DNA of 64,000 bases from NCBI GenBank assembly GCA_040384445.1, contig JAZKJG010000001.1, positions 7,650 to 71,649 on the forward strand. The letters are read 5' to 3'. Made by a program: the position numbers and the translations under genes. The number at the start of each line of letters is the position of its first letter. Within the stretch, counting starts at the first letter, position 1. The stretch comes from Patescibacteria group bacterium. Lineage in GTDB: Bacteria > Patescibacteriota > Minisyncoccia > Phycocordibacterales > CAIZLB01. Under the pieces are notes generated by a model. The model ran no database searches and was not told the origin of the DNA. It saw only the letters and a list, made by a program, of their open reading frames with translations. Of this stretch, positions 16,501-49,066 are shown in pieces.

Positions 16501-19500
16501 GAAGTAGTGCGGGAGCTTATGCAGACAATGCATCATCATCAAACTTCATTGGAAATGATGCAGGAGCATATTCTATCAACGCAGCCTTCTCAAACTTCTT
16601 AGGGCAAAGCGCAGGGTACGATGCTGATAATGCATTTAACTCAAACTTCATCGGACGAGTTACAGGGTATCAAGCAACAAATGCGCGTGACTCAAACTTC
16701 ATGGGATATGGTGCGGGACAGAGTTCGACAAACGCCGCATTCTCAAACTTCTTTGGAAATAATGCAGGAGGAAATGCTCCAAATGCATCATACTCAAACT
16801 TCCTAGGAGTTAGTGCAGGAGGAAATGCAACAAACGCCGCAAACTCTAACTTTATTGGATATAGTGCAGGAGCAAGTGCTACAAACGCACCTTTCTCAAA
16901 CTTCATTGGATACAATGCAGGAAATAGTGCAACAAACGCATCAACTTCAAACTTTATTGGATATAACGCTGGTAACGCCGCAACAAACGCCGCCTTCTCA
17001 AACTTTATTGGAAATAATGCAGGATATGGTGCAACAAATGCTAATTTCTCGAACATGCAAGGATATAACGCTGGGTATGCTGCGACAGGCGCAGTTGCTT
17101 CAAACTTCTTTGGTTTATCAGCTGGAAGTTATGCAACAGGAGCACATAACGCAAACTTCATTGGAAATAGTGCAGGAGGTTCTGCAACATATGCAGCGTA
17201 TGGAAACTTCATTGGAGCAAACGCAGGAGTAAATGCAACAAATGGAGAATTCTCAACCTTCATTGGATATAACGCCGGTAATGCTGCAACAAACGCATCT
17301 TCATCAGTGTTTATTGGGTATGCAGCAGGACAATCAGCAACAAATGCAAGACAATCAAACTTCATTGGTAATGGTTCAGGTTATCTTGCAACAAATGCAA
17401 CATTGTCAAACTTCTTTGGAATCAATGCGGGAAATAGTGCAACAAACGCTTCGTCATCAAACTTCATAGGTTACGGAACAGGAGCAAGTGCAACAAATGC
17501 CGCATTCTCAAACTTTAGTGGACAAGATGCAGGAGCAAGTGCAACAAATGCATCATACTCAAACTTCTTTGGATCACAGGCTGGTCAACTTGCAACAAAC
17601 GCAGTGAATGCAAACTTCTTTGGACGACAAACAGGATTCCTCGCAACTGACGCGTATGATTCAAACTTCATAGGATATGGTGCTGGATATCTTGCTACAT
17701 ACGCATCATCGTCAAACTTCTTAGGAAGATCAGCAGGATCAGGAGCAACAAACGCTGCTTTCTCAAACTTCATTGGAAATAGTGCAGGAAATAGTGCAAC
17801 GGATGCTATATACTCAAACTTCTTTGGTGTTAATGCAGGAATTTTTGCCACTGGAGCTTCTAACTCAAACTTTATGGGATATAGTGCTGGACATACTGCA
17901 ACAAATGCATATCTTTCAAACTTCCTTGGAAGAGCTGCTGGATCTGGGGCAACATATGCAGCATATTCAAACTTCCTTGGATATAACGCAGGGTTAAATG
18001 CAACAAACGCTGAGTACTCTAACTTTATCGGTAACTCAGCTGGAGAAACTGCCACAAATGCATCTACTTCAAACTTCATTGGAAATAACGCTGGAAAACA
18101 AGCAACGAATGCGTTACTTTCAAACTTTATTGGAAATAGTGCCGGTTACCTTGCAACAAACGCTGCTCTTTCAAACTTTATTGGTAATGGAGCGGGAAAT
18201 AGTGCACCAAACGCAGCGATCTCAAACTTTATTGGATATAACGCAGGAAACGATGCAGACAACGCATCATCATCAAACTTCATCGGATTCCAGGCAGGTA
18301 TGCAGGCAACAAATGCATCATCATCAAACATTATAGGAACATATGCAGGATATCAATCAACTAACGCAGCATACTCAAACTTCATAGGATATGGAGCAGG
18401 ACAGTATGCGACAAATGCGCGTAACTCAAACTTTATCGGACTTGGAGCTGGAGGTGGAGGTGTAGGATCATATGATTCAAACTTCTTTGGTGTGAACGCA
18501 GGATCAAATACAAATTCATATAGATCAAACTTTATTGGATATAATGCAGGAACAGATTCACTAAATGCAACATCATCAAACTTCTTTGGAGAGTATGCTG
18601 GATATGATTCAGACAATGCTGCAAAATCAAACTTCATCGGACATTTTGCTGGGTATAATGCAACAAACGCAACTCGATCAAACTTCATTGGAGAACTTGC
18701 TGGGTTCCAAGCAACTAATGCAATCGACTCAAGCTTCATTGGTCGTCAGGCAGGAGAATATGCAACGAATGCTTCATCTTCAGTGTTTATCGGTCGAACT
18801 GCAGGTGCAAGTGCTGTCAACGCCGCCTTCTCAACATTCATCGGTAATGCAGCAGGAGATAGTGCAACCGGCGCTGATAATGCAATATTCATTGGTAATG
18901 CTCCAGGTTACGCTGCAACAAATACTTCAGATGTAATATTCTTAGGTCGAGCAACAGGACAGTATGCATACAATGCAAGTAACTCATTCTTTGCAGGATA
19001 TGCTGCTGGATACGGTGCAACAAACGCATCAATGATGAATGTTATCGGGTGGAATGCTGGAAATGGAGCTACAGATGCAACATTCTCAAACTTCATGGGA
19101 TACTCTGCAGGGTATGGTGCAACAAACGTATCGTTCTCAAACTTCTTCGGCGCAACTGCTGGATATGGAGCAACATATGCTTCACAATCAAACTTCTTTG
19201 GACAATACGCCGGGCAAAATGCTGTCAATGCAGGTGCTTCAAACTTCTTTGGAGGTGGAGCTGGAGATGGGGCTACAGATGCCGCGAGTTCAAACTTCTT
19301 TGGATTTAATGCAGGAGCATTGGCAACAGATGCATCATTCTCAAACTTCTTAGGACAGTATGCAGGAAAAGATGCAACATATGCTTCACTTTCAAACTTT
19401 ATAGGATTCAGTGCTGGAGAAGATGCAACAAACGCAACTCAATCAATCTTCATTGGGTCAAATGCAGGAAAAAATGCAGCGTTTGCAAACAGCTCTATAT

Positions 19501-21308
19501 TTATTGGGCAAGATGCTGGTTATAACGATACTGTAGATAACTCTTCGAACTATAAATCTTCGATCTTGATTGGAGATTATACATCAACTGGAGGTTTCTC
19601 AAACTCAATTGCTATTGGTCAAGGTACAAAAAACAGTGCGACTGAACAATTAAACTTAGGAGGATTGATTTATGGTTTGGGAATACGGGCAACAACAACA
19701 CCAACAGCGACACCTGTAGTTGGTGGTAAAGTTGGAATTGGAACTTCAACCCCGTCAACAACACTGGATGTATGGGGTAACTTCCAAGTTGGAACTTCTT
19801 CAACACCACTTATATTCGCAAACACTGCAACCGGACGACTTGGAGTTGGAACAAGTGCTCCAGGAGCGTTGCTTGATGTTGGAGGCATAGGAGCATCACC
19901 AACAGGATTCCCTGATATGGTTGCTGGATTTAGAGGAACTGCAAATAACTACATGACTGTTGAGATGCAGAACATAAGTGTTGGAGGAAGTGCAGCAACT
20001 GTATTGTTCCTAAGTGGAATTGGAGGAAGTAATGCAATATCTTTAGGTCAGTATGGTGCAGGAAATTCTGGCTTTACAGGAGGTATTAACAACTATGATG
20101 TATCATTCTTGACTGCTGTAGGTAGTCTTGCTCTGGGTTCAGGGGCTTCAAAAAACATACTGTTCAATATTGGAACAACAGAAGCGGCGCGATTTAACAC
20201 AAGTGGATTCTTAGGTTTAGGAACATCAACTCCATCAACAAGACTTGATGTATGGGGTAATTTCCAAGTTGGAACATCTTCAAATCCAATCATTTTCGCA
20301 AACAGTGGAACTGGACGACTTGGAGTTGGATCATCAACACCGATTGCAATGCTCGCAGTTAAAGGTACTGCAGGTGTAAACCCATTTGTTGTTGCTTCAT
20401 CAACTAACACTCAGATGTTTACGATTACACAAGCTGGAAGTGTGGGAATCGGAAGTTCAACACCAATCGCAACATTCTCACTTACAGGAGTTGGAGGAAC
20501 AAACCCAATCATGATTGCATCATCAACAAATGCCAATATGTTAAGTCTTACACAAACAGGTAGACTTGGGGTTGGTACTTCGAGTCCAGTGCAAAGTTTG
20601 GCTGTTGTAGGAACAATACATTCAACAGTCTTGAACGGAGGTGCAACAACTCTTTCAGTTGATGCAAACGGAAACATTATCAGAACTCCGTCTGATGCAA
20701 CTTTAAAAACACAAGTTGAAACATTAACAAATGCACTTGATAAAGTAAAACAACTTCGAGGTGTGAGTTACCGATGGATTGATACAGAAAGATTTGGTTC
20801 TGATCAAGATATAGGTTTGATTGCACAAGAAGTCGAAACTGTTGTTCCTGAAGTTGTAAAATCAGGAGGAGCATATAAGTCAGTTAACTATCCAAACCTT
20901 GTTGCACTATTAATAGAGGCAATGAAAGAGTTGAATACAAAAGTTGAAAAAATTGCAGCATGGTTTGGAGGAGATCGATTCGATGTACAAGGAGATATTT
21001 GTGTAGACGATGTATGTGTGACGAAAGAGCAATTCAAAGCAATGTTGATCCAAGCACAAAATGGAGGTTCAGGATCATCATACACACCACCAACTCCGGA
21101 TCCTACTCCAACACCTGATCCAACACCAGAACCTACAGATGGAGGAAGTGGTAGTGATGGAGAAGGGACTCCACCGTCTACTGAAGAAACTCCTGCACCA
21201 ACACCAACTCCGACACCTGAGTCAACTCCAGAGCCAACGCCTGAACCTGTTCCAGAACCATCACCAACACCGGCGCCTGAGCCTGCACCTACAGTGGCAG
21301 CAGAATAG
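7575..21308 (+). CDS. Giant secreted repeat protein (4577 aa). Signal peptide. Phage-tail-fibre-like modules. C-terminal intramolecular-chaperone/peptidase S74-like domain. Pro/Thr-rich tail.
   Basis: Single uninterrupted 13.7-kb ORF. N-terminal signal peptide (KLSPIAFLLIIGMFFGVYGNLFAAPA). Repeated VGIGTSTP...KL.V.G motifs. ~48-aa TASTTEW repeats. ~70 copies of a 17-aa SNF(F/I)G..AG..ATNA repeat. C-terminal SDATLKTQV...LRGVSYRW...GLIAQEVETVVPEVV...VNYPNLVALLIEAMKEL block. Confidence 0.9.
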   Translation: MKFPFLTKKLSPIAFLLIIGMFFGVYGNLFAAPATGSLGFQGQLFNNGTAVTGSVNATFTFYDAAIGGSAQGSTILKTVTVANGYFGTQFTESDTTGIDFNQELFIEVVVNGTALTPRSSVNSVPVARKAFGTFAYSSAPAVGEAGSLYFNTTSDTLLVSDGTSWVPAGTASSTTQWTTNGSDLYFTTGNVGIGTSTPADKLSVVGTVRATSFVGDGSQLTGIPVLSTSSVRSMFSSTATGLTYTAGTGVFSLAAGYVIPLTASTTEWAAAAASTTAMTPAYFRGLVSNSVAGLTYNPTTGATTLTAGYNIPLTASTTEWASAAASTSPSAIRGLFSNGATGLTYNSSTGATSLAAGYVIPLSASTTEWAAASASTTAMTPSYFRGLLSATGPISYNSSTGAFTFSTSSLGLTTTNIAEGSNQYFTDARARSALSESVTGLEYATSTGIFSLTSGYVIPTTASTSEWASAAASTTAMTPSYFRGLLSNSAAGLAYNSSTGATTLTAGYNIPLTASTTEWSQAYASTAPSVIRGLFSNSTTGLTYNSSTGATSLTAGYVISLTASTTEWATAYASTTAQTPAYFRGLLSNSVAGLTYNSSTGATTLTAGYNIPLSASSSEWALAYASTSAMTPVYTRGLFSNSTTGLTYNSGTGATSLTAGYVIPLVASTTEWAASSASTSPSAIRGLFSNGATGLTYNSSTGATSFTAGYSIPLTASSTEWSSFFNTPSTRITAGSNLSWAGNTLNAALSFSTSSINYLRNVSGGLETATSTDFLRAAYFTATGTTASTFTNASSTNLTITGSLYNSSLSNGCLEVSGGLVTSTGSNCGVGSGGITSLNGQTNSSQSFATSSTAGTFGFGFSSAGGIHTLNISLASSTNTGLLSASDWTTFNNKQGVLSFGNLTSSATGLSVTGGTGAVVGAGAAVTLAAGYSIPLSASTTEWSVAYASTTALTPAYFRALLSNSATGLTYNSGTGATSLTAGYVIPLVASTTEWAAVAASTTPSAIRGLFSNSATGLTYNSSTGATSFTAGYSIPLTASSTEWSSFFNTPSTRITAGSNLSWAGNTLNANISTSSINYLRLVSGGLEISTSTDFIRAAYFTATSTTVSTFAGAVAIGTTTSLAKFDVNAGSALHANAFNIYGVSTLGIGSVFGRISNTNTTGRTLFSLGETSGDTSTPFYIQRYGSTHATTPNLVEIGIATATGDMAFLTNSVERLRVTSSGNVGIGSSTPSATLGVAGSLNVTGAFRANGDAGTSGQIFQSTGSGASWISTSTLNILGTTTIRTLFSSTATGLTYTSGTGVFSLTAGYVIPLTASSSEWALAYASTSAMTPTYTRGLFSNSTTGLTYNSGTGATSLTAGYVIPLVASTTEWAASSASTSPSVIRSLFSNSAAGLTYSSTTGATTLTAGYSIPLTASSTEWSSFFNTPSTRITAGNNLSWTGNTLNASFSTSSVNYVRIVSGGLETATSTDFLRAAYFTATSTTGTSTFAGLVGIGTTTPSATLGVNGSINVTGAFRANGDAGTSGQIFQSTGSGASWISTSTLNILGTTTIRTLFSSTATGLTYTSGTGVFSLTAGYVIPLTASTTEWATAYASTTALTPAYFRGLLSNSATGLTYNSTTGATSFTAGYSIPLTASSTEWSSFFNTPSTRITAGSNLTWSGNTLNANISTSSINYLRLVSGGLETSTSTDFLRAAFFTATSTTATSTFAGYVGVGTSSPLAKLHVFGGTASPQVVVDSGSQNLDLYAAATTSNIDFSSILLFRSKTFANRGTNTGAVEYGRFDASGNFQVGTSTALGRVNIQGVNSSPTNAALSVYNSTGTNLLNVMNGGNVGIGSSTPSATLGVAGSLNVTGAFRANGDAGTSGQIFQSTGSGASWISTSTLNILGTTTIRTLFSSTATGLTYTSGTGVFSLTAGYVIPLVASSSEWSLAYASTSAMTPTYTRGLFSNSTTGLTYNSGTGATSLTAGYVIPLIASTTQWATAYASTTALTPAYFRGLLSNSATGLTYNSTTGATSFTAGYSIPLTASSTEWSSFFNTPSTRITAGSNLTWSGNTLNANISTSSINYLRLVSGGLETATSTNFLRAAYFTATSTTGTSTFAGAVAIGTTTSPYKLAVIGDSYFSGNINAFSYGADAYHILGSNQHNTVTIKKGTGYGSGIHFEDGSSNLWDISTDSSNNFSIFNYSPSATAFAINKSNNYVGIGTSTPIFALDVVGAAGTVIRANSSGSTYIDANTGSASSNGGFSFSALGSNKWLLYRDGDDDSVNFFSNTLAQSVLTMNAAGNVGIGTTTPTEKLSIAGALNLTGAFKSNGNAGTLGQVLQTTGTGVQWVATSSLGISGGSLSGGTDGYLARWTSASTLSSGLFLDNGTVAGINATSSSYTFNVKGNSGVNPFNVASSTGTSMFAIANNGRVTVYGDIETDDDISNTFLGVGAGKGSVLDGGSNTAVGSDALYTNTGSFGGYGYDNTALGAYSLYSLNAVSGGSGYANVAVGVKALWLNVLGSENVALGTKALEDMTDGYGNIAIGNNAGNNQTLGSYNIVIGNVVSLASTTGSNQLNIGNLLFGTDLGTGGGISTGNIGIGTNAPAYRLDVNGTGRFVRSSVDGALVLDNSTSDANSILFQTAASNKWSTYLSGNDLRFYDYSGNADRLTLKSGGNVGIGTTTPTERLSIAGALNLTGAFKANGDAGSVGYVMISQGTSTAPIWVATSSLGLSGGAGVGTINSGTAGQVAFYAGSGTTVSGTSTLFFSAGNIGIGTTTPGYRLTVDGDVWLGTTTLANGNLVIGKDGSVTSRGQAGSVFLGLDAGNGATSSNSSNFFGISAGQNAAYASYSNFFGEEAGYGATYATNSNFFGDSAGYDATNAESANFFGNEAGVNATNALFSNFFGAAAGYGATDAANSNFFGRQAGSYATDAYNANFFGDFAGSGATYATNSNFFGDSAGYDATYAYNSNFFGEQAGYDAENAYDSNFLGSSAGAYADNASSSNFIGNDAGAYSINAAFSNFLGQSAGYDADNAFNSNFIGRVTGYQATNARDSNFMGYGAGQSSTNAAFSNFFGNNAGGNAPNASYSNFLGVSAGGNATNAANSNFIGYSAGASATNAPFSNFIGYNAGNSATNASTSNFIGYNAGNAATNAAFSNFIGNNAGYGATNANFSNMQGYNAGYAATGAVASNFFGLSAGSYATGAHNANFIGNSAGGSATYAAYGNFIGANAGVNATNGEFSTFIGYNAGNAATNASSSVFIGYAAGQSATNARQSNFIGNGSGYLATNATLSNFFGINAGNSATNASSSNFIGYGTGASATNAAFSNFSGQDAGASATNASYSNFFGSQAGQLATNAVNANFFGRQTGFLATDAYDSNFIGYGAGYLATYASSSNFLGRSAGSGATNAAFSNFIGNSAGNSATDAIYSNFFGVNAGIFATGASNSNFMGYSAGHTATNAYLSNFLGRAAGSGATYAAYSNFLGYNAGLNATNAEYSNFIGNSAGETATNASTSNFIGNNAGKQATNALLSNFIGNSAGYLATNAALSNFIGNGAGNSAPNAAISNFIGYNAGNDADNASSSNFIGFQAGMQATNASSSNIIGTYAGYQSTNAAYSNFIGYGAGQYATNARNSNFIGLGAGGGGVGSYDSNFFGVNAGSNTNSYRSNFIGYNAGTDSLNATSSNFFGEYAGYDSDNAAKSNFIGHFAGYNATNATRSNFIGELAGFQATNAIDSSFIGRQAGEYATNASSSVFIGRTAGASAVNAAFSTFIGNAAGDSATGADNAIFIGNAPGYAATNTSDVIFLGRATGQYAYNASNSFFAGYAAGYGATNASMMNVIGWNAGNGATDATFSNFMGYSAGYGATNVSFSNFFGATAGYGATYASQSNFFGQYAGQNAVNAGASNFFGGGAGDGATDAASSNFFGFNAGALATDASFSNFLGQYAGKDATYASLSNFIGFSAGEDATNATQSIFIGSNAGKNAAFANSSIFIGQDAGYNDTVDNSSNYKSSILIGDYTSTGGFSNSIAIGQGTKNSATEQLNLGGLIYGLGIRATTTPTATPVVGGKVGIGTSTPSTTLDVWGNFQVGTSSTPLIFANTATGRLGVGTSAPGALLDVGGIGASPTGFPDMVAGFRGTANNYMTVEMQNISVGGSAATVLFLSGIGGSNAISLGQYGAGNSGFTGGINNYDVSFLTAVGSLALGSGASKNILFNIGTTEAARFNTSGFLGLGTSTPSTRLDVWGNFQVGTSSNPIIFANSGTGRLGVGSSTPIAMLAVKGTAGVNPFVVASSTNTQMFTITQAGSVGIGSSTPIATFSLTGVGGTNPIMIASSTNANMLSLTQTGRLGVGTSSPVQSLAVVGTIHSTVLNGGATTLSVDANGNIIRTPSDATLKTQVETLTNALDKVKQLRGVSYRWIDTERFGSDQDIGLIAQEVETVVPEVVKSGGAYKSVNYPNLVALLIEAMKELNTKVEKIAAWFGGDRFDVQGDICVDDVCVTKEQFKAMLIQAQNGGSGSSYTPPTPDPTPTPDPTPEPTDGGSGSDGEGTPPSTEETPAPTPTPTPESTPEPTPEPVPEPSPTPAPEPAPTVAAE
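8340..9760 (+). repeat. Intragenic tandem ~48-aa (~144-bp) repeats: IPLTASTTEW.A.AST......RGL.SN...GLTYNS.TGAT.LTAGY
   Basis: Direct reading of translation. Approximately 10 consecutive units. Additional dispersed copies at ~10380-10720, 11500-11860, 12300-12500, 13320-13700. Confidence 0.85.
11237..11700 (+). repeat. Long near-identical intragenic direct repeat, copy A (>95% nt identity to 13070-13510; partial copy at 12107-12310)
   Basis: By eye, the stretch ggaaatgttggaattggttcttcaactccatcagc...ggatatgt and the following ~200 nt recur almost base-for-base. Confidence 0.8.
13070..13510 (+). repeat. Long near-identical intragenic direct repeat, copy B
   Basis: See copy A. Only a handful of substitutions over >400 nt. 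Confidence 0.8.
16030..19520 (+). repeat. Array of ~70 degenerate 17-aa (51-bp) repeats SNF(F/I)G..AG..ATNA.. (coding, inside the giant gene)
   Basis: Strict 17-residue periodicity in translation with invariant N-F-x-G ... A-G ... A-T/x-N/x-A positions. Spurious ORFs in all other frames show the same periodicity. Confidence 0.9.
20688..20965 (+). other. Intramolecular chaperone / peptidase S74-like autoprocessing domain (protein domain inside giant gene 1)
   Basis: The motifs TPSDATLKTQVE, LRGVSYRWID, IGLIAQEVETVVPEVV and VNYPNLVALLIEAMKEL match hallmark blocks of the C-terminal chaperone domain of phage endosialidase/tail-spike proteins (SD.RLK.N cleavage motif; here SDATLK). Confidence 0.7.
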
Positions 21309-25270: not shown

Positions 25271-28200
25271 ATGGGTACATTTATCATAAAGCACGTTCAG
25301 AAAAACTGTAAAAAGTTTTTAAAAACTTTCCTTATCTTAGGATTGTTTTTAATGTGTTTTACTGCATATAGTGTGGTATATGCTGCGTTTAATCCTCAGA
25401 TAAATTACCAGGGAAAACTTACAGATGCTTCAGGTAACCCTGTTGCAAATGGAACATACAATATTGAATTTAAATTGTATACAGTTTCAAGTGGTGGAAG
25501 TCCTATTTGGACAGAAACAAGAACTGGAGGAGATAAGGTTACAATTACAAATGGACTGTTCAGTGTGATGCTTGGAAGTGTAAATTCAATTTCAGGAATT
25601 GATTTTAATCAACCATTATATCTAGGGGTAAATATTGGAGGAACAGGTTCACCATCTTATGACGGTGAAATGACTCCTCGAAAAACTTTCGGTACTGTAC
25701 CTGCATCATTTGTTGCACAGACACTTGAAGGATATCGAGCGATTCAATTTTTGCGAAGTGATGTTATAAATTCAACAAGTACAGGAGCTACGTTTTTAAA
25801 ACTTGAGCAAGCTGGAGCTGGAGCGATTGCAGAATTTATTGGAAATACTTCATCAACAATTCTTGGAATATATTCTGCAGGAGGTGGAGCTGTTGGAATT
25901 GGAACAACAACTCCAACAGAGAAGCTTACTATTGCAAATGGAAATTTGTTACTACAAGGAGAATACGGTGTGAAATGGACAGGAGGTTCTCAACTGTACG
26001 AACAAACTGTTGCAGGGGCTGGAGTTGATAGAATGATTTATCGACCTAATGGAGATCGATTTGATGTTATCGATGAAGCCGGTTCAACGTTCATGGCATC
26101 ATTCAATGTAAGTAATATACAGTTGTTTACTGCAGGTGTTTCAAGATTGTTTATTGATTCTTCAGGAAACCTTGGTATTGGAACTACGACCCAAACAGAA
26201 AAACTCACAATCGCAGGAAACATCAACCTCACCGGTGCATTCAAATCAAACGGAAACGCCGGAACACTGGGACAAGTATTACAAACAACAGGAACTGGGG
26301 TGCAATGGGTTGCAACATCAACTCTTGGAATATCAGGCGGATCACTCTCAGGTGGAACTAATGGGTATCTATCACGATGGACAAGTTCCTCAACTTTGAG
26401 TACGGGATTATTTCTAGACAATGGAACTGTAGCGGGAATTAACGCAACATCTTCATCATACACATTTAATGTAAAAGGATCAGGAGCGCTCGGTGCCTTC
26501 AATGTTGCGTCGTCGACTGGTACTTCGCTCCTCAACGTGAGGGCGAATGGGTATGTAGGAATCGGAACAAACGCTGCTGCATATCAGCTGGATGTAAAAG
26601 CTGATACTTCTGGCATTACTAACGTACTGAACCTAAGTAGTTCTATGACAGGGGCTGGAGATGGTACAGGAATTCTATTCTCTAGTTCTGAGGGAAGTCT
26701 ACATGCGCGTATACGAACCAGTGCCTATACAGGTACAACAGCAGGTTTAATATTCGAAGTAACCCCTTCAACTGATACCTTAACTGAAGCACTGCGTATC
26801 ACAGATACTGGAAATGTAGGAATCGGAACAACAACTCCATCTGCAAAACTAGATGTATGGGGAAATTTGAAAGTAGGAACATCATCAACACCAATTTTGT
26901 TTGCAAACACAGCAACAGGAAAAGTTGGTATTGGAACAGTATCGCCAGCGCATACATTAGATTTGGGAGGAGTAAGTCCGACTTTAAATGTTGGGTTATA
27001 CGGAGGGGGAGGTGCTGCAACTATTCGTATGTTGGGGGAAGCATTGTTTAGTTTCTCTGGTGGAACAGTCGGATCAACTATTGCAATAGGCTCTGCTGAT
27101 ACTTCTGTTGATTTTGACCTTGCGTTCCATGCAGGAGGATCGAACAGAATGTATATAGATGGGGCGACTGGTAATGTTGGAATCGGAACAACAACATCAG
27201 TAGAACTTCTCACAATTGCAGGAAATCTCAACCTCACAGGTGCACTCAAATCAAACGGAAATGCAGGAACTCTCGGACAAATATTACAAACAACAGGAAC
27301 CGGAGTACAATGGGTTGCTACATCATCATTAGGTATTTCAGGTGGAGGAGGATCGGGAACTGTAAACTCTGGACTTCTTGGTCAAGTTGCTTTTTATAGT
27401 GCAAATGGAACAGCGGTTTCAGGAACTTCAACATTGTTTATCACTGGTGAAAAGATTGGAGTTGGAACAACGACTGTAACAGAAAAATTAGTAGTCGATG
27501 GAAATGCTCTTATTACAGGATTACTAAAAGGTGGTACTTCTGCAAATATTAATTTAAATGGACTGTCTAATAACGGTGTAGATTTTAACTATTTAAATGG
27601 AGGTATATTTCGTACTGCAGAAACAAGTATTGCAGGAACAAATGATATATTCTTCCAAGGAGTTCCTGCTACTACTGCTGGATATACCTATCTTGAAGCA
27701 TGGCAATCTGCTGGTTTGATTTTAGGAACGGGAAATTCAACTGCAATTATTTTCAAACCAAACAGAACTGAATACATGCGACTTACTGGAACTGGTGATT
27801 TGGGAATTGGGACATCTACTCCAATTGCAAAACTTGCAGTTACAGGAACAGGAACAACAACAGGTAAAGCTTTCGTTGTTGCAAACTCAAACAATACTCC
27901 GATATTCACAATGCTTGATAATGGAAATATTGGAAATGGTGTAGGCGCTGACCCTGTATCATGGGATTTCCATATACAAAGAACTGGAAATTTGTACGCA
28001 ACCCTACAAAGTTCAACAGGACATTCTACCCTTCGTCTTGTGAGTGCCACAGGGTTGAGCCCCACTCTTCATTTTGGTGACGGGTCAAGTAATCGATGGG
28101 ACGTTGTTTCAAATGGTTCAAACTCAGGAAACCTTGAGTTTAATTCATATTCTGTAGGAAATGTAATGAGTCTAGGTTTGACAACTGGACTTGTAGGAAT

Positions 28201-31200
28201 CGGAACATCTACTCCATCCGCAAAACTGGATGTATGGGGAAATTTGAAGGTAGGTACATCATCAACTCCAACATTGTTTGTAAACACTGCAACAGGAAAA
28301 GTTGGTATTGGATCTTCAACTCCGGTAAGTAAACTTTCTGTTGTGGCATCATCAGGGGTAGCTGTGACATTTGAAAATACAGCAACATGGTCAGGTTCAG
28401 AGTTTGCACTTGATGTAAAAGGTTACTCAAACTTAAGTGGACTCAGGATTAATGCAGCTGACGGAATTAATGCACTCTACAACGGGGCAAATACAACTCT
28501 GGGATTTACAAATAATCAAGGGTATCCAATTACGTTTTCATCATGGAATGGCACAGTAACTGAATTGATGAGAATTGATACAACAAGTGGGAAGATTGGA
28601 ATTGGAACTTCAACAGCAACGGAAATTCTTTCTGTCGCAGGAAATATCAACCTCACCGGTTCATTCAAATCTAACGGAAACGCAGGAACTCTTGGACAAG
28701 TGTTACAAACAACTGGAACAGGAGTACAGTGGGTTGCAACATCATCACTTGGAATAACGGGTGGAGGTATATCAGGAACTGTAAACTCAGGGCTGCTCGG
28801 TCAAGTTGCTTTTTATGATGCCAACGGAACAGTGGTTTCAGGAACTTCAACATTATTTATTACTGGAGAAAAACTTGGTATAGGAACTACAACTCCTGGA
28901 TACAAACTGACTGTTGACGGAGATGTGTGGCTTGGAACTACGACTCTTGCAAATGGTAATCTTGTTATTGGTAAGGATGGCTCTGTTGCATCACGAGGCA
29001 TGCTCCACTCTATTTTCCTTGGGAAAGATTCTGGAACATCTACAGCTGCTACTGGTAATTCAAACTTCTTCGGAAATGGTGCAGGACAATATGCAACAAA
29101 CGCAGATAACTCAAACTTCTTTGGATCTGGAGCAGGAGAATCTGCTACTGAAGCAGCAGGATCAAACTTCTTTGGGGCAGTGGCAGGAAGTGGAGCAACA
29201 TATGCAGCAGGATCAAACTTCTTCGGAGCTGGAGCTGGATTCTCTGCAACAGAAGCTGCATACTCAAACTTCTTCGGAGAAAATACAGGAAGTTTTGCGA
29301 CATATGCTGACAACTCAAACTTCTTTGGTGCCGCTGCAGGAAACAATGCAACAAATGCATCATCATCAAACTTCTTTGGTGCTGCCGCTGGAGACAGTGC
29401 TACAAATGCTTTCAATTCAAACTTCTTTGGAAGATTAGCTGGAGCCGGCGCAGCTAATGCAGCAAACTCAAACTTTGTGGGTTATAACGCTGGAAATAAT
29501 TCAACCAACGCTGCACTCTCAAACTTCATTGGATACAATGCTGGTAACGATGCAACAAACGCATCGTCATCAAACTTCATCGGATTCCTTGCTGGAATGC
29601 AGGCGACAAATGCATCATCATCAAACATTTTTGGATCATATGCAGGTTACCAATCAACGAATGCTGCCTACTCAAACTTCATCGGATATGGTGCAGGACA
29701 GTACGCAACAAATGCACGTAACTCTAACTTCCTAGGACTAGGAGCTGGAGGAGGAGCTGCAGGTGCATATGATTCAAACTTCTTTGGTGTGAACGCAGGA
29801 TCAAATACAAATGCATTTAGATCAAACTTTATGGGATATGAAGCAGGAAGTACTGCAACAAACGCAACCTACTCAAACTTCACTGGATATTATGCTGGAT
29901 ATGGTGCAACCAATGCAAATGACTCTAACTTTATCGGTAGAAATGCGGGATACAATGCAACAAACGCATCAACAACTAACTTCATAGGATATAATGCAGG
30001 ACAAAACGCAACGAATGCAAACTTATCAAACTATATTGGGTACTATGCAGGAAATGGAGCAACAAACGCTTCAAACGTGAATGCACTTGGTGCATATGCA
30101 GGTCAAAATGCAACGAATGCCTCAAACTCATTCTTCGTAGGATATCAAGCAGGAAATAATGCAACAAATGCAAACATGGTAACTGCTATTGGATATCTTG
30201 CAGGATCTGGTGCATCTGATGCCATATTCTCAAACTTCTTTGGATATGGAGCCGGACAAAACGCAACAAACACATCAAACTCAAACTTCTTTGGAGCTAG
30301 TGCAGGGTCAGGAGCTTCACAAGTTTCAAACTCAAACTTCTTTGGGGTAAGTGCAGGTAGTGCTGCAGTAGGTGCAAGTGCATCAAACTTCTTTGGATCT
30401 GGAGCAGGACAAAACGCAACTAACGCAGTATCTTCTAACTTCTTTGGATTTTCAACAGGATCTGGTGCAACCAATGCAATATTCTCTAACTTCTTCGGAC
30501 AATATGCAGGTCAAAATGCAACGAATGCTTCGTACTCAAATTTCTTCGGATTCAATTCGGGATATGGAGCAACTACTGCCCAGAACTCAACATTTATGGG
30601 TCCACAAGCGGGATATCAGGCTGCTAATGCTAATAATGCAATATTCCTAGGGCAAAACTCAGGATACAATGATACGGTAAATAACTCAACCAACTGGAAG
30701 TCTTCAATCCTTATTGGAGATTACACATCAACTGGAGGTTTCTCAAACTCAATCGCTATCGGTCAAGGTACAAAAAACAGTGCAACAGAGCAATTAAACT
30801 TAGGGGGCTTGATTTATGGACTGGGAATACGAGCAACAACAACACCAACTGCCACTCCTGTTTCTGGAGGTCTTGTAGGTATTGGAACTTCAACTCCAGG
30901 AACTATACTTACAATTGTTGCAGATGCTTCTGTTGATAGTGGTTTGTCGGTTATCGGTAACAATAATGGTTTCTTCGAAGGTAATATTCAAAACTTAAGT
31001 TCAGGAGTAAATGCCTCATCTGATTGGGTGGCAACAGCAAATAACGGAGATGATACCATTCATTACATTGATATGGGAATCAACGGTAGTGGAGGAGGAG
31101 CTGCACCATTTACAGGTGCTAACCAGGCGTACCTGTATTCTGTAAGTGATACACTCAACATTGGAGCATTAGGAACCGGAAATACTGTTAACTTCTATAC

Positions 31201-32719
31201 AACTGGTGGAACTTCTCCAGTAGAGAGAATGCGGATTGATAGTTTTGGAAATATTGGAATTGGAACCACAACTGTTCCTGCTTCACTATCATTGGCGAGC
31301 GCAACAACAACTGGTGATGCAATCTCAGTTCATGGACCATTAGGAACGAAACTTTTCAGTGTAAAACTTATTGCTCAAAACTTCGGAGGGCTTGTTGAAT
31401 CAGGAGCATTTATGGGTAACAACTCATTTTTTGCAGAAGAGTTTAACGTAGATACTGCGCTTATCAGTGCTGACAGTGCAGCGATTGGAGATAACGGAGG
31501 TATGTATTTTGATACAACATCTGTTACGTCAACATATTCAGCTACAGACTTCATTGGTGGATACGGAAGACTTGTGGCAAGTACCACAACGGGTGTTGGT
31601 GGATTGATTGGTTTTGGAAATGCTCAGAACAACCTTAGTTTAATGTTCTCTAAAGCAAACTTACCTGTTGTACAGATGAAAGTGAGAACAAATATTAACA
31701 ACACAACAAACGATACTTTTTGGGGGCTTATGGACCAGGCTACTGCTCCAACTGCGAACGACACGGCTCCAGCAAACGGTATATATTTCTGGAATAACAA
31801 CGCAGCAGGAGGATGGCAAGGGGTTGTGCGAAGTGGAGGTGCAAACGTAGGTACAGTAACTTGTCCAGGTGCTATCAGTACTACACAGTTTGCAATAGGA
31901 AGAATTCAGGTAGAAAGTACTTCAACCGTACGATTTTTGATTGATAACGATATTACAACTGACGGAGTTAATATGGTGGATTGTGGAACTGTGACAGGGG
32001 CAAACCCTTCTGCAGCTCTTGGAATCGCACTGTATAATATTCATACAGAAAACACTGCGACAGCAAGAAATATTGATATTGATTATATGCGAGTGTGGCA
32101 AGATGATGCGTCAACATCCTCAGATGAATCACTTGCAGGAGATGTTTCTTCAACTCCAGAAAAACTTACACAGTTCCTAGATAATGGATATCTTGTAGAC
32201 GGACTTGAATTAATGGGCAGAATTCAATCTGAAGATCAAAAAAATGTACTGGAAATTATTACGGATAAGGTGAAGAAAAATATGGAAATAGTTTCGGAAT
32301 TTGTGGCGCTTCGAGTTGTGGCAATGCGAGGATATTTTGAGGAGGTATTTACAAAGAAAATCCACACTGAAAAAATGTGTCTGAAGAAATCAGATGGTTC
32401 TGAGTATTGTGTAAATGGAGATGAGTTGCAATCAATCATGGAAGGAAAGGGTGTGGTGGTATCACCAACAACGAACCAGCCTGAAAATGTAGCCCCTACC
32501 TCTACGTCAACTTCAGATTCAGTGAGTGGTGGGGCAGCAACAAATACTGCTAACGAAGATCCTGATAGTTCCTCACCAACGGTGCAAGAGACTGAACAGC
32601 TCCCTCCTCCATCTGAAACTGTTCAGGAGCCTGCGTTTGAGCCCGAACCAGCACCAGCATCAACACCTGAACCTACTCCAACTTCGACACCAGAAGCTGC
32701 CCCTGCTCCAACAGAGTAG
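25271..32719 (+). CDS. Giant secreted repeat protein 2 (2482 aa), paralogous modules to giant gene 1, distinct C-terminal domain, Pro/Thr/Glu-rich tail
   Basis: Uninterrupted 7.4-kb ORF. Signal peptide/TM. The N-terminal domain is alignable with gene 1 (IDFNQ.L...V..G......PR..FGT). Segments 26190-26510 and 30700-30880 are ~90% identical at nt level to 14440-14790 and 19560-19740. ~32 copies of the 17-aa repeat. No SD.RLK-type chaperone block. Confidence 0.9.
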   Translation: MGTFIIKHVQKNCKKFLKTFLILGLFLMCFTAYSVVYAAFNPQINYQGKLTDASGNPVANGTYNIEFKLYTVSSGGSPIWTETRTGGDKVTITNGLFSVMLGSVNSISGIDFNQPLYLGVNIGGTGSPSYDGEMTPRKTFGTVPASFVAQTLEGYRAIQFLRSDVINSTSTGATFLKLEQAGAGAIAEFIGNTSSTILGIYSAGGGAVGIGTTTPTEKLTIANGNLLLQGEYGVKWTGGSQLYEQTVAGAGVDRMIYRPNGDRFDVIDEAGSTFMASFNVSNIQLFTAGVSRLFIDSSGNLGIGTTTQTEKLTIAGNINLTGAFKSNGNAGTLGQVLQTTGTGVQWVATSTLGISGGSLSGGTNGYLSRWTSSSTLSTGLFLDNGTVAGINATSSSYTFNVKGSGALGAFNVASSTGTSLLNVRANGYVGIGTNAAAYQLDVKADTSGITNVLNLSSSMTGAGDGTGILFSSSEGSLHARIRTSAYTGTTAGLIFEVTPSTDTLTEALRITDTGNVGIGTTTPSAKLDVWGNLKVGTSSTPILFANTATGKVGIGTVSPAHTLDLGGVSPTLNVGLYGGGGAATIRMLGEALFSFSGGTVGSTIAIGSADTSVDFDLAFHAGGSNRMYIDGATGNVGIGTTTSVELLTIAGNLNLTGALKSNGNAGTLGQILQTTGTGVQWVATSSLGISGGGGSGTVNSGLLGQVAFYSANGTAVSGTSTLFITGEKIGVGTTTVTEKLVVDGNALITGLLKGGTSANINLNGLSNNGVDFNYLNGGIFRTAETSIAGTNDIFFQGVPATTAGYTYLEAWQSAGLILGTGNSTAIIFKPNRTEYMRLTGTGDLGIGTSTPIAKLAVTGTGTTTGKAFVVANSNNTPIFTMLDNGNIGNGVGADPVSWDFHIQRTGNLYATLQSSTGHSTLRLVSATGLSPTLHFGDGSSNRWDVVSNGSNSGNLEFNSYSVGNVMSLGLTTGLVGIGTSTPSAKLDVWGNLKVGTSSTPTLFVNTATGKVGIGSSTPVSKLSVVASSGVAVTFENTATWSGSEFALDVKGYSNLSGLRINAADGINALYNGANTTLGFTNNQGYPITFSSWNGTVTELMRIDTTSGKIGIGTSTATEILSVAGNINLTGSFKSNGNAGTLGQVLQTTGTGVQWVATSSLGITGGGISGTVNSGLLGQVAFYDANGTVVSGTSTLFITGEKLGIGTTTPGYKLTVDGDVWLGTTTLANGNLVIGKDGSVASRGMLHSIFLGKDSGTSTAATGNSNFFGNGAGQYATNADNSNFFGSGAGESATEAAGSNFFGAVAGSGATYAAGSNFFGAGAGFSATEAAYSNFFGENTGSFATYADNSNFFGAAAGNNATNASSSNFFGAAAGDSATNAFNSNFFGRLAGAGAANAANSNFVGYNAGNNSTNAALSNFIGYNAGNDATNASSSNFIGFLAGMQATNASSSNIFGSYAGYQSTNAAYSNFIGYGAGQYATNARNSNFLGLGAGGGAAGAYDSNFFGVNAGSNTNAFRSNFMGYEAGSTATNATYSNFTGYYAGYGATNANDSNFIGRNAGYNATNASTTNFIGYNAGQNATNANLSNYIGYYAGNGATNASNVNALGAYAGQNATNASNSFFVGYQAGNNATNANMVTAIGYLAGSGASDAIFSNFFGYGAGQNATNTSNSNFFGASAGSGASQVSNSNFFGVSAGSAAVGASASNFFGSGAGQNATNAVSSNFFGFSTGSGATNAIFSNFFGQYAGQNATNASYSNFFGFNSGYGATTAQNSTFMGPQAGYQAANANNAIFLGQNSGYNDTVNNSTNWKSSILIGDYTSTGGFSNSIAIGQGTKNSATEQLNLGGLIYGLGIRATTTPTATPVSGGLVGIGTSTPGTILTIVADASVDSGLSVIGNNNGFFEGNIQNLSSGVNASSDWVATANNGDDTIHYIDMGINGSGGGAAPFTGANQAYLYSVSDTLNIGALGTGNTVNFYTTGGTSPVERMRIDSFGNIGIGTTTVPASLSLASATTTGDAISVHGPLGTKLFSVKLIAQNFGGLVESGAFMGNNSFFAEEFNVDTALISADSAAIGDNGGMYFDTTSVTSTYSATDFIGGYGRLVASTTTGVGGLIGFGNAQNNLSLMFSKANLPVVQMKVRTNINNTTNDTFWGLMDQATAPTANDTAPANGIYFWNNNAAGGWQGVVRSGGANVGTVTCPGAISTTQFAIGRIQVESTSTVRFLIDNDITTDGVNMVDCGTVTGANPSAALGIALYNIHTENTATARNIDIDYMRVWQDDASTSSDESLAGDVSSTPEKLTQFLDNGYLVDGLELMGRIQSEDQKNVLEIITDKVKKNMEIVSEFVALRVVAMRGYFEEVFTKKIHTEKMCLKKSDGSEYCVNGDELQSIMEGKGVVVSPTTNQPENVAPTSTSTSDSVSGGAATNTANEDPDSSSPTVQETEQLPPPSETVQEPAFEPEPAPASTPEPTPTSTPEAAPAPTE
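29060..30670 (+). repeat. Array of ~32 17-aa (51-bp) SNFFG..AG..ATNA repeats inside giant gene 2
   Basis: Same periodic motif as 16030-19520. Confidence 0.9.
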
Positions 32720-32724
32720 TGGAG

Positions 32725-32920
32725 AAATATGGGTGGTATGGTAAAATATAAGGGTCTCCTAATAGTCGGCTTAGACCTTTCTTATCGGGGAGTCTACCGT
32801 AGTTAAAGAAACCGTGGTTTCTTTCTCGCGACACCCACCTAGCTTAAACACTAGGTCCGACTACTTGGGAGGCTTTATCAATACTTACTTTATGTTATAT
32901 TAAGTACTGATAAAGCCTAT
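32725..32920 (+). ncRNA. Candidate structured RNA / cis-regulatory leader of unknown class upstream of the VanZ-like gene
   Basis: GC content (~47%) is above local background. Perfect hairpin aaagaaacc-gtg-ggtttcttt (32806-32826). Hairpin cctag-cttaaaca-ctagg. Long-range complementarity ctcctaatagtcggc (32756-32770) with gtccgactacttgggag (32864-32880). 16-bp hairpin ggctttatcaatactt / aagtactgataaagcc ending 3 nt before the ATG at 32921. Confidence 0.35.
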
Positions 32921-33331
32921 ATGACACCAGAGATATATTCATGGAAAAAACCATTTTTTAGCGCAGCAGCATGTTTATTTGTGCTATTGATATTGAACGA
33001 TGTTGCAGTTCAACTTGCTTTATATTGGGGATACAAATGGCTTGATATACCATTTCATTTCATTGGAGGATTTGGAGTAGGTTTGGCAAGTATTGGACTA
33101 CTACGGATCGCATTTCCAGGTGAAAAATATATAAATAGTCCTCAGCTTTTATATACTGTACTTCTTACATTGTTTGTTGGTGCTTCATGGGAAGCAGTAG
33201 AAACGTATTATGACGTGTCTGTTCTCTTTGGTGGAAATTTCTGGTTTGATACATATAAAGATTTGCTTATGGATACACTTGGTGGGATACTTAGCTACAT
33301 ATGTTTCCATCCGCGCAAAAAAAATCTGTAA
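32921..33331 (+). CDS. VanZ-like family small membrane protein (136 aa)
   Basis: Four predicted TM helices. C-terminal WEAVE...DTYKDLLMDTLGGILSY matches the VanZ E..Q...R...D.LaNtlGa.lG motif pattern. Confidence 0.5.
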   Translation: MTPEIYSWKKPFFSAAACLFVLLILNDVAVQLALYWGYKWLDIPFHFIGGFGVGLASIGLLRIAFPGEKYINSPQLLYTVLLTLFVGASWEAVETYYDVSVLFGGNFWFDTYKDLLMDTLGGILSYICFHPRKKNL

Positions 33332-34728
33332 ATACAGAGACACAAGAATCAGCCGAAATTACATTTTGTGGAGGAGTGTCCTCAGTAACAGGAGCAAATT
33401 TTCTGCTCAATATTAAAAAACAAGGTACTCAAAAAAAGATACTTGTAGATTGTGGTATGGAACAGGGAAGTGAGAAAGCAAAGATTTATAATGCATCTCC
33501 ATTTATATTTGATCCAAAAGAAATCGAAATACTTCTTGTAACTCATGCACATATGGATCATATTGGACTCATTCCAAAACTTGTTCGACATGGCTTCAGA
33601 GGTGTTATATATAGTACTCCTGAGACCCGAGACTTGTGTGTGTTTATGCTTGATGATGCACTAAAATTAGTTACCCAAGAAGCAGAAGAACATCATGTTG
33701 ATCCTCTCTATGAGGCAGAAGATTTAAAGCTTGCATTTACACTGTGGAAAACAATCCCATACCATACTGAGTTTAGTTTAGGTGATGATGTGAATGTGTA
33801 TCTCAAAGATGCAGGTCATGTCCTCGGGTCATCAATGTTCGAGATTCGTGTACCTTTAAACGGTATCACGCGTAAGTTTTTGTTTACAGGTGATCTTGGA
33901 AATAGTCCATGTCCGATTTTAAAAGATACTGAATCAATAGAAGGAGTTGACTATGTTGTTATGGAAAGTGTGTACGGCGATAGAAATCATGAAGATAAAG
34001 CGGAGCGACTGCAGAAATTGCAAATGAATATCGAAGATATTATCGAACGAAACGGAGTGTTGCTTATCCCATCATTTTCTCTCGAAAAAACACAAGAGGT
34101 ACTTTTTGAAATAAATAAATTATTCGAAGATGGACATGTCCGAGAGATTCCTGTATATCTCGATTCACCACTCGCAAGTAAGCTGCTCCCTATTTATAAA
34201 AAATATACAAAAGATTATAATAAAGAAGCAACAGACAGAAGAATGAAAGGTGATGATATTTTAAATTTTAAAACACTTAAAATTATCGGGAGTGCAGAAG
34301 AATCAAAGGCAATAAAGTTTTCTAAAAATCCAAAGATTATTATGGCAGGTTCAGGTATGTCTACTGGAGGAAGAATTATGCACCACGAATTAAATTATCT
34401 TGATGATGACAATACGATTATCTTATTCATGGGATTTCAGGCGCTTGGAACCTTAGGACGTCAGATTCGGGATGGTGAAAAAAACGTACGAATATATAAT
34501 CATGATGTACATATTCGGGCTGAGATTCGTACAATTGACGGGTATTCAGGGCACAAGGATTCTGATAACCTTCAGGAGTTTGTTTCTACTGCTGCTGATA
34601 CTGTGAAAAAAATCTTTGTAACTATGGGTGAGACAAAATCAGCGCTCTTCTTAGTACAGCGCCTCAGAGACTATCAGGGACTTGATGCGATGCATCCTGA
34701 ACAAGGTCAGACAATTGTGCTACATTAA
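33301..34728 (+). CDS. MBL-fold metallo-hydrolase, beta-CASP ribonuclease family (475 aa)
   Basis: [17 protein letters not shown]...ILVDCGM motif 1. HAHMDHIG (HxHxDH) motif 2. Length and C-terminal domain consistent with beta-CASP RNases. The start overlaps the preceding gene by 31 nt, so a later start is possible. Confidence 0.8.
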
Positions 34729-34736
34729 TATCGTAC

Positions 34737-35612
34737 ATGACCCCTGCTCAGATACAATCAAGAATAGATGAAATAGAGCTTGCAATGCTTGAGAGTGATT
34801 TTTGGGTGGATAGCATAAAGGCTCAAGGGATCATGAAAGAATTGCAACAACTGAAAGCAGATCTTGTTGCTGGAGATTTTTCTCAAGTTGATGCAATCGT
34901 GAGTATTATATCTGGTGCAGGAGGTGACGATGCAGAAGATTTTGTAGGAATGCTTTTTTCAATGTATCAAAAGTTTTGTCAGAAAAATGGATGGGGGATG
35001 AGTATACTTCATGATCAACCTAATACTCTTGGAGGATATAAACAAATCATGTTTGAAATAAAAGGCAGGGGATCATATGGAATATTAAAAAATGAATCAG
35101 GTGTTCATCGACTTGTGCGAACATCTCCGTTTAATTCAAAAGGATTACGCCATACTTCTTTTGCACTTGTTGAAGTAGTTCCAAAACTTGACAAGGTGCT
35201 TGACGATTTCAAGTTGGATGAAAGTGAATTAGATATCACAACTCAGAAAGCTGGAGGCCCTGGAGGACAAAACGTAAACAAAAGAGAAACGGCAGTGCGT
35301 ATTGTTCATAAGCCAACAGGTATTTCTGTTCATGTTACAACTGAACGAGCACAAGCACAAAACAAAGAAAAGGCACTTCATATTATCCAAGCAAAACTTT
35401 TGAAAAAAAGAGATGATGATATGAAAGCAAAAGAAAAAGGATTGTCGACTACTGCGCATATTCAAATTGAGTGGGGATCACAGATTAGATCGTATGTGTT
35501 GCATCCATACAAGATGGTGAAAGATCATAGAACAGAATATGAGACAAGTTCGGTGGATGATGTTCTTGAGGGTGATATTGAAGGATTTTTGGAGGCTGAG
35601 AAGGGGTTGTAA
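34737..35612 (+). CDS. prfB: Peptide chain release factor 2 (short form, 291 aa, no frameshift site visible)
   Basis: SPF tripeptide ([10 protein letters not shown]) and GGQ motif ([10 protein letters not shown]). The start lies 8 nt after the upstream stop, so no room for a frameshifted leader. Confidence 0.85.
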
Positions 35613-48261: not shown

Positions 48262-48504
48262 ATGTATTTTGTGTATATTCTGAAGTGTAATGATGGAACG
48301 TTGTATACCGGTTCGACAAATGATATTGAGAAAAGAGTGGTTACACATAACTCAGGTGCTACTGGTGCAAAATATACAAAAGCGAGGCGCCCAGTAGAAC
48401 TTATATATCAAGAAGAATTTGAAACAAAAAGCCAGGCACTCAAAAGAGAATGGGAAATAAAAAAGTTATCTCGCCGAGATAAGCTTACGCTTTTTTCTCA
48501 ATAA
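48262..48504 (+). CDS. GIY-YIG domain protein (YhbQ/UPF0213-like, 80 aa)
   Basis: FVYILKCNDGTLYTGSTNDIEKRVVTHN GIY-YIG motif. Start 1 nt after the upstream stop. Confidence 0.75.
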   Translation: MYFVYILKCNDGTLYTGSTNDIEKRVVTHNSGATGAKYTKARRPVELIYQEEFETKSQALKREWEIKKLSRRDKLTLFSQ

Positions 48505-49066
48505 TTCTCATACCCCAAGGTGATGATTCTGGAAGCCGTTCTTTCCTTGAAAGTCTAAATTGATAGAGTGAAAATATAATTGTGACAAGGGTGGCGATAC
48601 CTTTGTAGACAACCCAGTCTTCTGCGGTTAAATTAATTCGTGCTATTTCATTTGCAACTGTTAATATGGTGAACAAAATTGCCCATCTATATGTGAGCAT
48701 TCTCCAGCCAGCATCTGTCATTGCAAATAGTCCCCGAAAAAGAGGTTGTAAAAGTGATTTTTGAAAGGCGAGTCCTATAAATAAAACTGCTGCAAATATT
48801 CCATTGTATAACGTATCTTTAATGATTATAAAAAATGGATTATTAAGAATAATGGTAAGTAATCCAAATCCAATAACACTCACTCCAACAATGAGTGGGA
48901 ACCATGCAAGCTCTCTTCGTTCTAAAAAGGCAATAATAAGCGAGAGAGATGTGAGTACTACAAAAATAAGAACCGCTGTCATAAAACTCAGTAATTCTGA
49001 GGTGATCAGGAATACGATAATTGGCCCAAATTCGATACTGAGGTTTAAGAATAGTTTTTTTAACAT
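48485..49066 (-). CDS. YciB/IspZ-family inner-membrane (septation protein A-like) protein (start set at MLKKLF)
   Basis: Five TM helices. The NNPFFIIIKDTLYNGIFAAVLFIGLAFQKSLLQPLFRG...W..L...WA.LF...TVANEI region aligns by eye with E. coli YciB. Confidence 0.55.
   Translation of the reverse strand: MLKKLFLNLSIEFGPIIVFLITSELLSFMTAVLIFVVLTSLSLIIAFLERRELAWFPLIVGVSVIGFGLLTIILNNPFFIIIKDTLYNGIFAAVLFIGLAFQKSLLQPLFRGLFAMTDAGWRMLTYRWAILFTILTVANEIARINLTAEDWVVYKGIATLVTIIFSLYQFRLSRKERLPESSPWGMRIIEKKA

Follow-up and report, generated by a model that had tools for sequence, protein, structure and literature searches.

A conserved structured RNA upstream of a Lipocone-type gene in a Patescibacteria bacterium, probably a miniaturised 6S RNA

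What is encoded in the gap that separates an open reading frame (ORF) of 2482 aa (25271-32719) from the start of one of 136 aa (32921-33331) on contig JAZKJG010000001.1 of a Patescibacteria group bacterium? The gap lies in a stretch of 64,000 nt (contig positions 7,650 to 71,649, forward strand; hereafter the window, in whose numbering positions are given), and an earlier note, made from its letters, had placed there a structured RNA, read mainly as a translational riboswitch or other cis-regulatory element of a VanZ-like gene, with a small non-coding RNA (ncRNA) as the fallback. Searching the full 64-kb window with Rfam at gathering thresholds returned zero matches, and ARAGORN found no tRNA or transfer-messenger RNA (tmRNA); the RNA occurs once in the window. 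Comparison with homologous loci establishes that a conserved structured RNA is present, strongly backed by covariation. The element is probably a miniaturised 6S RNA (SsrS) gene; a translational riboswitch is not the best explanation of an architecture that has the layout of 6S RNA.

The fold and its conservation

The loci compared were fetched through the 136-aa protein and its 35 relatives, and the comparative set consists of 14 distinct close copies of the element with 67-84% DNA identity. The parts of the RNA in the window and the gene that follows it are:

32720-32725, plus strand: weak -35-like element, TGGAGA
32739-32747, plus strand: extended -10 element (TG at 32739-32740, TAAAAT at 32742-32747), from a promoter scan and aligned in 14 relatives
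32754-32769, plus strand: 5' strand of stem P1, pairing with 32857-32873
32770-32787, plus strand: junction strand J1/2, 18 nt, without pairs in the RNAalifold consensus, its sequence conserved
32788-32836, plus strand: apical stem P2-P2a-P3, from covariation
32805-32812 with 32817-32824, plus strand: hairpin P3, AAAGAAAC/GUUUCUUU, loop CGUG
32837-32842 with 32851-32856, plus strand: hairpin P4, ACCUAG/CUAGGU
32857-32873, plus strand: 3' strand of P1, with GGGAGG at 32867-32872, its pairing supported
32870-32918, plus strand: hairpin P5, 17 bp plus one mismatch, A/U-rich, no U-tract
32921-33331, plus strand: gene encoding a VanZ/DUF2238-type ('Lipocone') membrane protein of 136 aa, from the ORF and weak Pfam matches

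P1 is a helix of 16 bp with one bulged C (32864) and compensatory changes in both its outer and its inner part. J1/2 opens with an invariant GCUUAnAC followed by a U-rich tract, P2 pairs GGG-A-GUC with GAC-A-CCC around a conserved A.A mismatch, and P2a consists of CG:CG and AG:CU. P5 shares 4 nt with P1, and 2 nt separate it from the AUG at 32921. Judged solely by the spacing from the -10 element, transcription would start at about 32753-32754, which gives an RNA of ~120 nt from there to the end of P1 (~32754-32873), or ~165 nt with P5 included.

Given the 14 homologues, RNAalifold recovers P1 to P5 unaided: 50 pairs, 24 of them with compensatory changes. In this consensus 96.3% of the cells pair, compared with 35-47% when the partners are slid by 1-3 columns; the same slid controls yield 2-6 compensatory pairs against the 24 observed, and none of 500 shuffles reaches the observed values. 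In the aptamer-sized core compensatory changes occur in 21 of 35 pairs; P2a and P3 have them in 9 of their 11 pairs, P2 in 2 of its 6. The variable pairs of P2 covary over 22 sequences drawn from both subtypes of the RNA (the second is described below), as GUC/GAC, GAUC/GAUC, GGCC/GGUC and GCUC/GAGC, and further as AUCC/GGAU, UUGC/GCGA and UUCC/GGAA. P4 is paired in 100% of cases, its UAG/CUA changing to UGA/UUA, UAA/UUA or UGG/CCA in relatives, and P5 contributes 15 consensus pairs, 10 of them compensatory, with 94% of cells paired. Covariation among homologues thus bears out the proposed structure in part, and the helices described for it are all located (P1, P3, P4, P5), two of them with corrected measures: the enclosing helix, given as 13-15 bp, has 16 bp with the bulged C, and the hairpin given as 16 bp ending 3 nt before the ATG has 17 bp and a mismatch and ends 2 nt before it.

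The strand calls for some comment. Folded singly, the plus strand obtains modest support (z = -2.5; 1 of 200 shuffles folds as well), and the reverse complement of 32715-32925 folds better (z = -5.9 against -2.5). Despite this better z score, an RNA on the minus strand is rejected and the RNA is assigned to the plus strand, because G.U cells outnumber A.C cells (26 vs 5), because the core covariance model scores 105-129 bits on the plus strand and 19-33 bits on the minus strand, and because promoter and gene all lie on the plus strand; evidently, single-sequence folding can mislead strand assignment. Against R1, a covariance model of these RNAs, the window copy scores 120.8 bits. A T-box on the minus strand, brought to mind by a GGUGGG resemblance, had no Rfam support and was discarded.

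A TAnAAT or TAnACT box, often with TG, stands 6-7 nt before the first base of P1 in all 14 copies, and one subgroup of relatives also keeps a -35 element (CTTGCA/CTTGAA). The promoter disposes of the pseudoknot-like ggtgg/ccacc pair that had been suspected to cross the helices: its ggtgg (32733-32737) belongs to the promoter spacer ahead of the -10 box, a part that is not transcribed, so that the pair is impossible, and this ggtgg is not conserved. The description of the element as GC-enriched holds weakly, with a GC content of 0.47 against 0.33-0.38 downstream and 0.48-0.55 at the end of the upstream gene.

Likeness to 6S RNA

The covariance model extends the family to more distant loci (relatives' loci are cited below by handles such as L013). 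Full-length copies were found in L013 (E 1e-9) and L007 (E 3e-4), upstream of proteins 36-38% identical, and a second subtype occurs in Paceibacteria-like genomes, at eight loci:

L025, 1236-1354: second-subtype RNA
L052, 1031-1144: second-subtype RNA
L012, 227-339: second-subtype RNA
L054, 852-966: second-subtype RNA
L055, 1009-1121: second-subtype RNA
L026, 832-947: second-subtype RNA
L009, 2769-2912: second-subtype RNA
L008, 2727-2857: second-subtype RNA

Inside a long P1 the second subtype carries the core GGG-A-(3-4 bp)...(3-4 bp)-A-CCC-ACC-URR-loop-YYA-GG, and in most of its members an 11-bp outer P1 (GCGRYAGGUAY with GUGCCUGCCGC) is followed by a conserved 10-nt internal loop, NNCACCUGCU. 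This loop repeats the 5' strand of P4; possible partners for it are CAGGU in P1 and the 3' strand of P4. The distant members each have the same topology, as judged by minimum free energy alone, and in the relatives the RNA measures ~113-144 nt plus a terminator. It begins 7 nt after its own -10 box (TAnACT), and a GC hairpin with a U-tract ends it in L013, L007, L025/L052, L009, L008 and L026. The downstream gene has an extended -10 of its own, 6-8 nt before the ATG, in L007, L008, L009, L025/L052 and L026 (for example TGATAGAAT, TGTTAGAAT and TGTATACT). With promoter and terminator on the RNA and a -10 on the gene, the distant loci look like separate transcription units, that is, a stand-alone small-RNA gene and then a separately transcribed protein gene, as far as sequence can tell. 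The fallback reading of the earlier note, a small ncRNA, was probably right.

Which small RNA it is likely to be is suggested by permissive Rfam scans of the relatives, in which, besides tRNAs in the flanks, the sole family to recur on the element is 6S/SsrS (RF00013, gathering score 46.4 bits), always on the plus strand and in register. The matches are:

L003: 25.1 bits, E 0.0013 in a 186-nt search, RF00013 model positions 34-153
L006: 25.5 bits, RF00013 model positions 36-151
L004: 23.5 bits, RF00013 model positions 1-187
L025 (second subtype): 15.8 bits, E 0.26, RF00013

In the L003 alignment the invariant blocks of our RNAs (GGGAG...CACCCACCU.G...AGGU.CAA) fall on upper-case positions of the 6S consensus. 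The upper end of the 6S closing stem is matched by the inner part of P1, the A/U-rich 5' bubble strand by J1/2 (CUUAAAC and the U-rich tract), the closing G-C pairs of the apical stem by GGGAG...CACCC, and the conserved block CCCACCUgg...CaGGuUCaA by ACCUAG...CUAGGUCCAAC. The bubble-flanking motif GGG-A-...-A-CCC-ACC-URR...YYA-GG is found in 22 of 24 sequences. By description, 6S RNA is ~200 nt long and its two ends form a closing stem, beyond which lie the central bubble and an apical stem of irregular pairing (PMC8876501); the rod-like topology found here is the same, with P1 as closing stem, J1/2 and P4 as bubble and P2-P3 as apical stem. The likeness to RF00013 hence comprises the closing stem, an A/U-rich 5' bubble strand flanked by G-C pairs and the 3' block CCCACCU.G...AGGU.CAA, and the differences are the length (~120 nt against ~200 nt, the distal apical arm being gone) and, in the window, an RNA that lacks a terminator and adjoins an ORF. 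B. subtilis 6S-1 offers two further parallels, by description and not by sequence: the free RNA already has a 5-7-bp hairpin on the bubble's 3' side, like P4 here, and truncated derivatives of 78-82 nt, consisting of the bubble and short arms, bind, template product RNA (pRNA) and release in vitro, although natural 6S-1, unlike the RNA described here, has long arms (PMC8876501).

Several observations weigh against this identification. All RF00013 scores stay below the gathering score, the best being 25.5 bits, and the window copy itself gives no 6S match at E <= 10, so that it is linked to 6S through its homologues alone; the known-RNA match that the earlier note had named as refuting its reading thus exists as sub-threshold 6S hits in L003, L004, L006 and L025 and is absent for the window copy. 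In the reverse direction R1, run with filters off on E. coli ssrS (L056), did not detect it and returned only a 3.9-bit fragment (1612-1638); R1 being a narrow model (effective sequence number 1.12), this check carries little weight. The RNA falls short of the length of 6S RNA and misses its distal apical arm. It stands upstream of one gene family in both subtypes, as a cis-regulator would; this association is partly a matter of ascertainment, because the loci were retrieved through the protein. In addition, the GGAGG-like motif in the P1 3' strand of the close group is kept more strictly than pairing demands. On the other side, sub-threshold 6S calls backed by synteny have a precedent (PMC8414754).

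If the RNA is indeed 6S, established 6S biology would have it bind and sequester the sigma70-type RNA polymerase holoenzyme by mimicking an open promoter, with P1 in the place of the downstream duplex, the unpaired strand and P4 as the bubble and P2-P3 as the upstream duplex. Upon a rise in nucleoside triphosphates (NTPs) the polymerase would copy the 5' bubble strand and the 5' strand of P1, the latter a likely pRNA template, and pRNA synthesis would unzip P1 and release the enzyme. Ultrasmall, host-dependent bacteria would then have kept a polymerase-sequestering switch between growth and stasis, in a natural form of ~120 nt that matches what in-vitro truncations found sufficient (PMC8876501), and our alignment could serve as a seed for 6S annotation across the candidate phyla radiation. 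The curated Rfam threshold misses the RNAs described here. 6S RNA is said to be present in nearly all bacteria (PMC8414754). A literature search found, in the sources accessible to it, no description of 6S RNA in Patescibacteria, the only co-mention being in work on mitochondrial signal recognition particle (SRP) targeting as far as the accessible part of that work goes. A pattern scan of viral contigs for the RNA core gave 0 matches.

The 3' end, the downstream gene and rival explanations

In the window and its close relatives the 3' end is organised differently from that of the distant loci. Among the 14 close relatives P5 occupies the position of the terminator: it is A/U-rich, has 15-17 bp and no U-tract, shares up to 4 nt with P1 and leaves 2-4 nt between itself and the AUG. 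A scan of the window leader found no intrinsic terminator. The downstream gene has a poor -10 of its own (GATAAA in the window, CTGAAG/TTGAAG in one subgroup) and, being without a usable one, must be transcribed from the promoter of the RNA. RNA and Lipocone gene would thus be co-transcribed in the window and close relatives, as are ssrS and fau in E. coli. There ssrS ends 76 nt before fau (ygfA) on the same strand, so that both systems have the RNA gene directly upstream of a same-strand protein gene; they differ in that fau encodes 5-formyltetrahydrofolate cyclo-ligase and the gene here an unrelated Lipocone membrane protein, and in that a hairpin reaching to within 2 nt of the AUG overlaps the closing stem of our RNA.

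Translation in this genome appears to be dominated by leaderless genes. A Shine-Dalgarno (SD)-like motif precedes 2 of the 34 long ORFs of the window, and many of its ORFs have TATAAT, TATACT or TACAAT ~6 nt before the ATG (for example at 44140, 44785, 38429, 48485-49066 and 7078), a pattern shared by the related loci. An RNA fused to a leadered gene would be an unusual arrangement in a genome of this kind. GGGAGG is the only SD-like motif near the downstream gene, and all close relatives have a GGAGG-like sequence in the 3' strand of P1 (GGGAGG, GGGGGG, AGGAGG, CGGAGG or GAGGGG), which is absent there from the terminator-type L013 and L007. In the folded leader the unpaired probability of GGGAGG is ~0, as it pairs in both P1 and P5; the best state compatible with the consensus combines P1 less its four outer pairs with a full P5, at -54.8 kcal/mol. 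The start codon lies outside P5, and its sequestration by a hairpin, as had been proposed, is not confirmed. P5 would stand in for the terminator of the relatives: it may simply replace it, it may bring the SD sequence next to the AUG, or it may mark a processing site that leads to a near-leaderless mRNA. In phage T4 genes 38 and 25 a hairpin between SD sequence and AUG restores normal spacing, and the conserved hairpin between GGAGG-like motif and AUG resembles these hairpin-bridged sites; the leaderless-dominated genome and the pairing of the candidate SD sequence GGGAGG in P1 and P5 are unlike them. A slim chance may be given to a minimal 6S RNA fused to an mRNA, in which the 3' strand of the closing stem bears the one SD-like motif of the co-transcribed gene and P5 sets this motif beside the AUG. 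Copying of the closing stem into pRNA upon a nutrient upshift would both free the polymerase and expose the candidate ribosome-binding site, and a single RNA would link the global control of transcription to how a lipid-remodelling gene is translated, in an otherwise leaderless genome.

The principal alternative to 6S RNA, an orphan riboswitch or some other cis-acting leader that regulates the Lipocone gene, would act as an OFF switch: with its three-way junction and P1 stabilised by a ligand or factor, GGGAGG would be hidden in leaders of the window type and termination favoured in the terminator-type relatives. A conserved covarying core with a long conserved junction strand is what one would expect of it, as are the recurrence of the same gene family downstream in both subtypes, the fully paired GGGAGG, and a 3' module that varies between GGGAGG in P1 with P5, intrinsic terminators, and a GC hairpin by GGAG-AUG (L055); L013, moreover, has no second promoter between terminator and ATG. 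The terminator-type members, however, share no conserved antiterminator pairing, the search having found case-by-case complementarities alone (such as CCUGCC/GGCAGG in L025), and at most of their loci a leaderless promoter belongs to the gene itself, so that attenuation could not yield a translatable mRNA. Rfam shows similarity to nothing but 6S, which acts in trans, SD use is rare, some homologous genes (L018, L019, L040, L042) have no RNA upstream, and the gene association, as said, is partly ascertainment. A literature search for DUF2238 with riboswitches, or for riboswitches of Patescibacteria, brought up nothing relevant. We consider this explanation unlikely. If the RNA is 6S, it also serves as a warning that a lone 6S sequence can easily be taken for a riboswitch.

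Even less probable, in our judgement, is a lineage-specific small RNA that merely resembles 6S, for instance a binder of core polymerase like Ms1 or of some other protein. Ms1, according to the accessible part of its description, is an RNA structurally related to 6S with a different partner (PMC9130861), and such an RNA would account for the sub-gathering scores, for the undetected window copy and for the near absence of the apical arm that bears the '-35-like' region in E. coli 6S (PMC8876501); yet the blocks shared with 6S fall exactly around the central bubble, its functional core, and 6S-1 truncated of the -35 region works in vitro (PMC8876501). Finally, the beta-CASP/RMMBL ribonuclease gene that overlaps the Lipocone gene in the window and many relatives could suggest an autoregulatory target of this enzyme, like the rne or pnp leaders. 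L052, L053 and L054 keep the RNA without a nuclease gene in the operon, however, and the structure is more than a simple cleavage hairpin, which makes this explanation very improbable.

In L012 (340-515) and L054 (967-1200) some 175-235 nt of extra structured sequence lie between RNA and gene, opening with a conserved GC hairpin without U-tract (CGCCCCGC-loop-GCGGGGCG); in L055 the same hairpin directly adjoins GGAG-N5-AUG.

The membrane protein, neighbouring genes and other features

The 136-aa protein has a counterpart with 100% identity in a Patescibacteria metagenome-assembled genome. Its description as VanZ-like has weak support: the window protein matches VanZ with 12.5 bits (E = 0.24) and does not reach the cut-off of 30.1. 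Among family members VanZ is matched in 29 of 34 (best 5.9e-4) and DUF2238 in 23 of 34 (best 7e-5), and precomputed tables list PF09997. The AlphaFold2 model has four long helices (pLDDT 87), a search of PDB folds with the protein gave none below E = 1, and D42, H46, E91, E94, D110, D114 and D118 are invariant. The core of the Lipocone superfamily, four transmembrane helices whose H2-H4 bear conserved acidic and His residues, is thus found here, and the modelled protein fits this superfamily, for whose members (VanZ, Wok/DUF2238) an action on lipid head groups is predicted (bioRxiv 10.1101/2025.01.14.632903). JGI labels its homologues 'membrane protein YjdF', a name that invites confusion with the yjdF (azaaromatic) riboswitch RF01764. 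The latter controls the yjdF of the B. subtilis type, a soluble, Lys/Arg-rich DUF2992 protein (PMC4793209), whereas the window gene is of the VanZ/DUF2238 kind; published yjdF aptamers have a four-way junction and a UUGGUAGU loop (L2), which our RNA lacks, and no Rfam match was obtained. The name being all that is shared, this candidate was rejected.

Directly downstream follows the ribonuclease gene mentioned above:

33301-34728, plus strand: beta-CASP metallo-beta-lactamase ribonuclease gene, from Pfam matches to Beta-Casp, Lactamase_B and RMMBL

It overlaps the 136-aa gene by 31 nt and is probably translationally coupled to it, and for its relatives precomputed tables list Anti-Pycsar_Apyc1 matches. 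B. subtilis uses RNase J1 to mature 6S-1 and to degrade 6S-2 (PMC10578484). The Lipocone gene is the sole constant neighbour of the RNA, in a set of loci retrieved via the Lipocone protein. Second-subtype loci often have a SLOG (LDcluster4) gene and, upstream, an ndk gene. The upstream neighbour differs between subgroups of relatives, the downstream gene being conserved, and one subgroup has, on the opposite strand, a tRNA gene of 81 nt some 650-750 nt ahead of the RNA:

L003, 2094-2174, minus strand: 81-nt tRNA gene
L005, 2088-2168, minus strand: 81-nt tRNA gene
L039, 597-677, minus strand: 81-nt tRNA gene
L006, 1518-1598, minus strand: 81-nt tRNA gene

Elsewhere in the window a release-factor-2-like protein (34737-35612) has just 291 aa and its PCRF domain is matched from profile position 92 of 194, so that its N-terminal part seems to be missing. 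The 2482-aa ORF upstream of the RNA, which has many repeats of the GIGTTTP..KL and SNFFG types, and a second giant ORF of 4577 aa (7575-21308) probably encode surface or adhesion proteins; at related loci the upstream neighbours carry Peptidase_S74.

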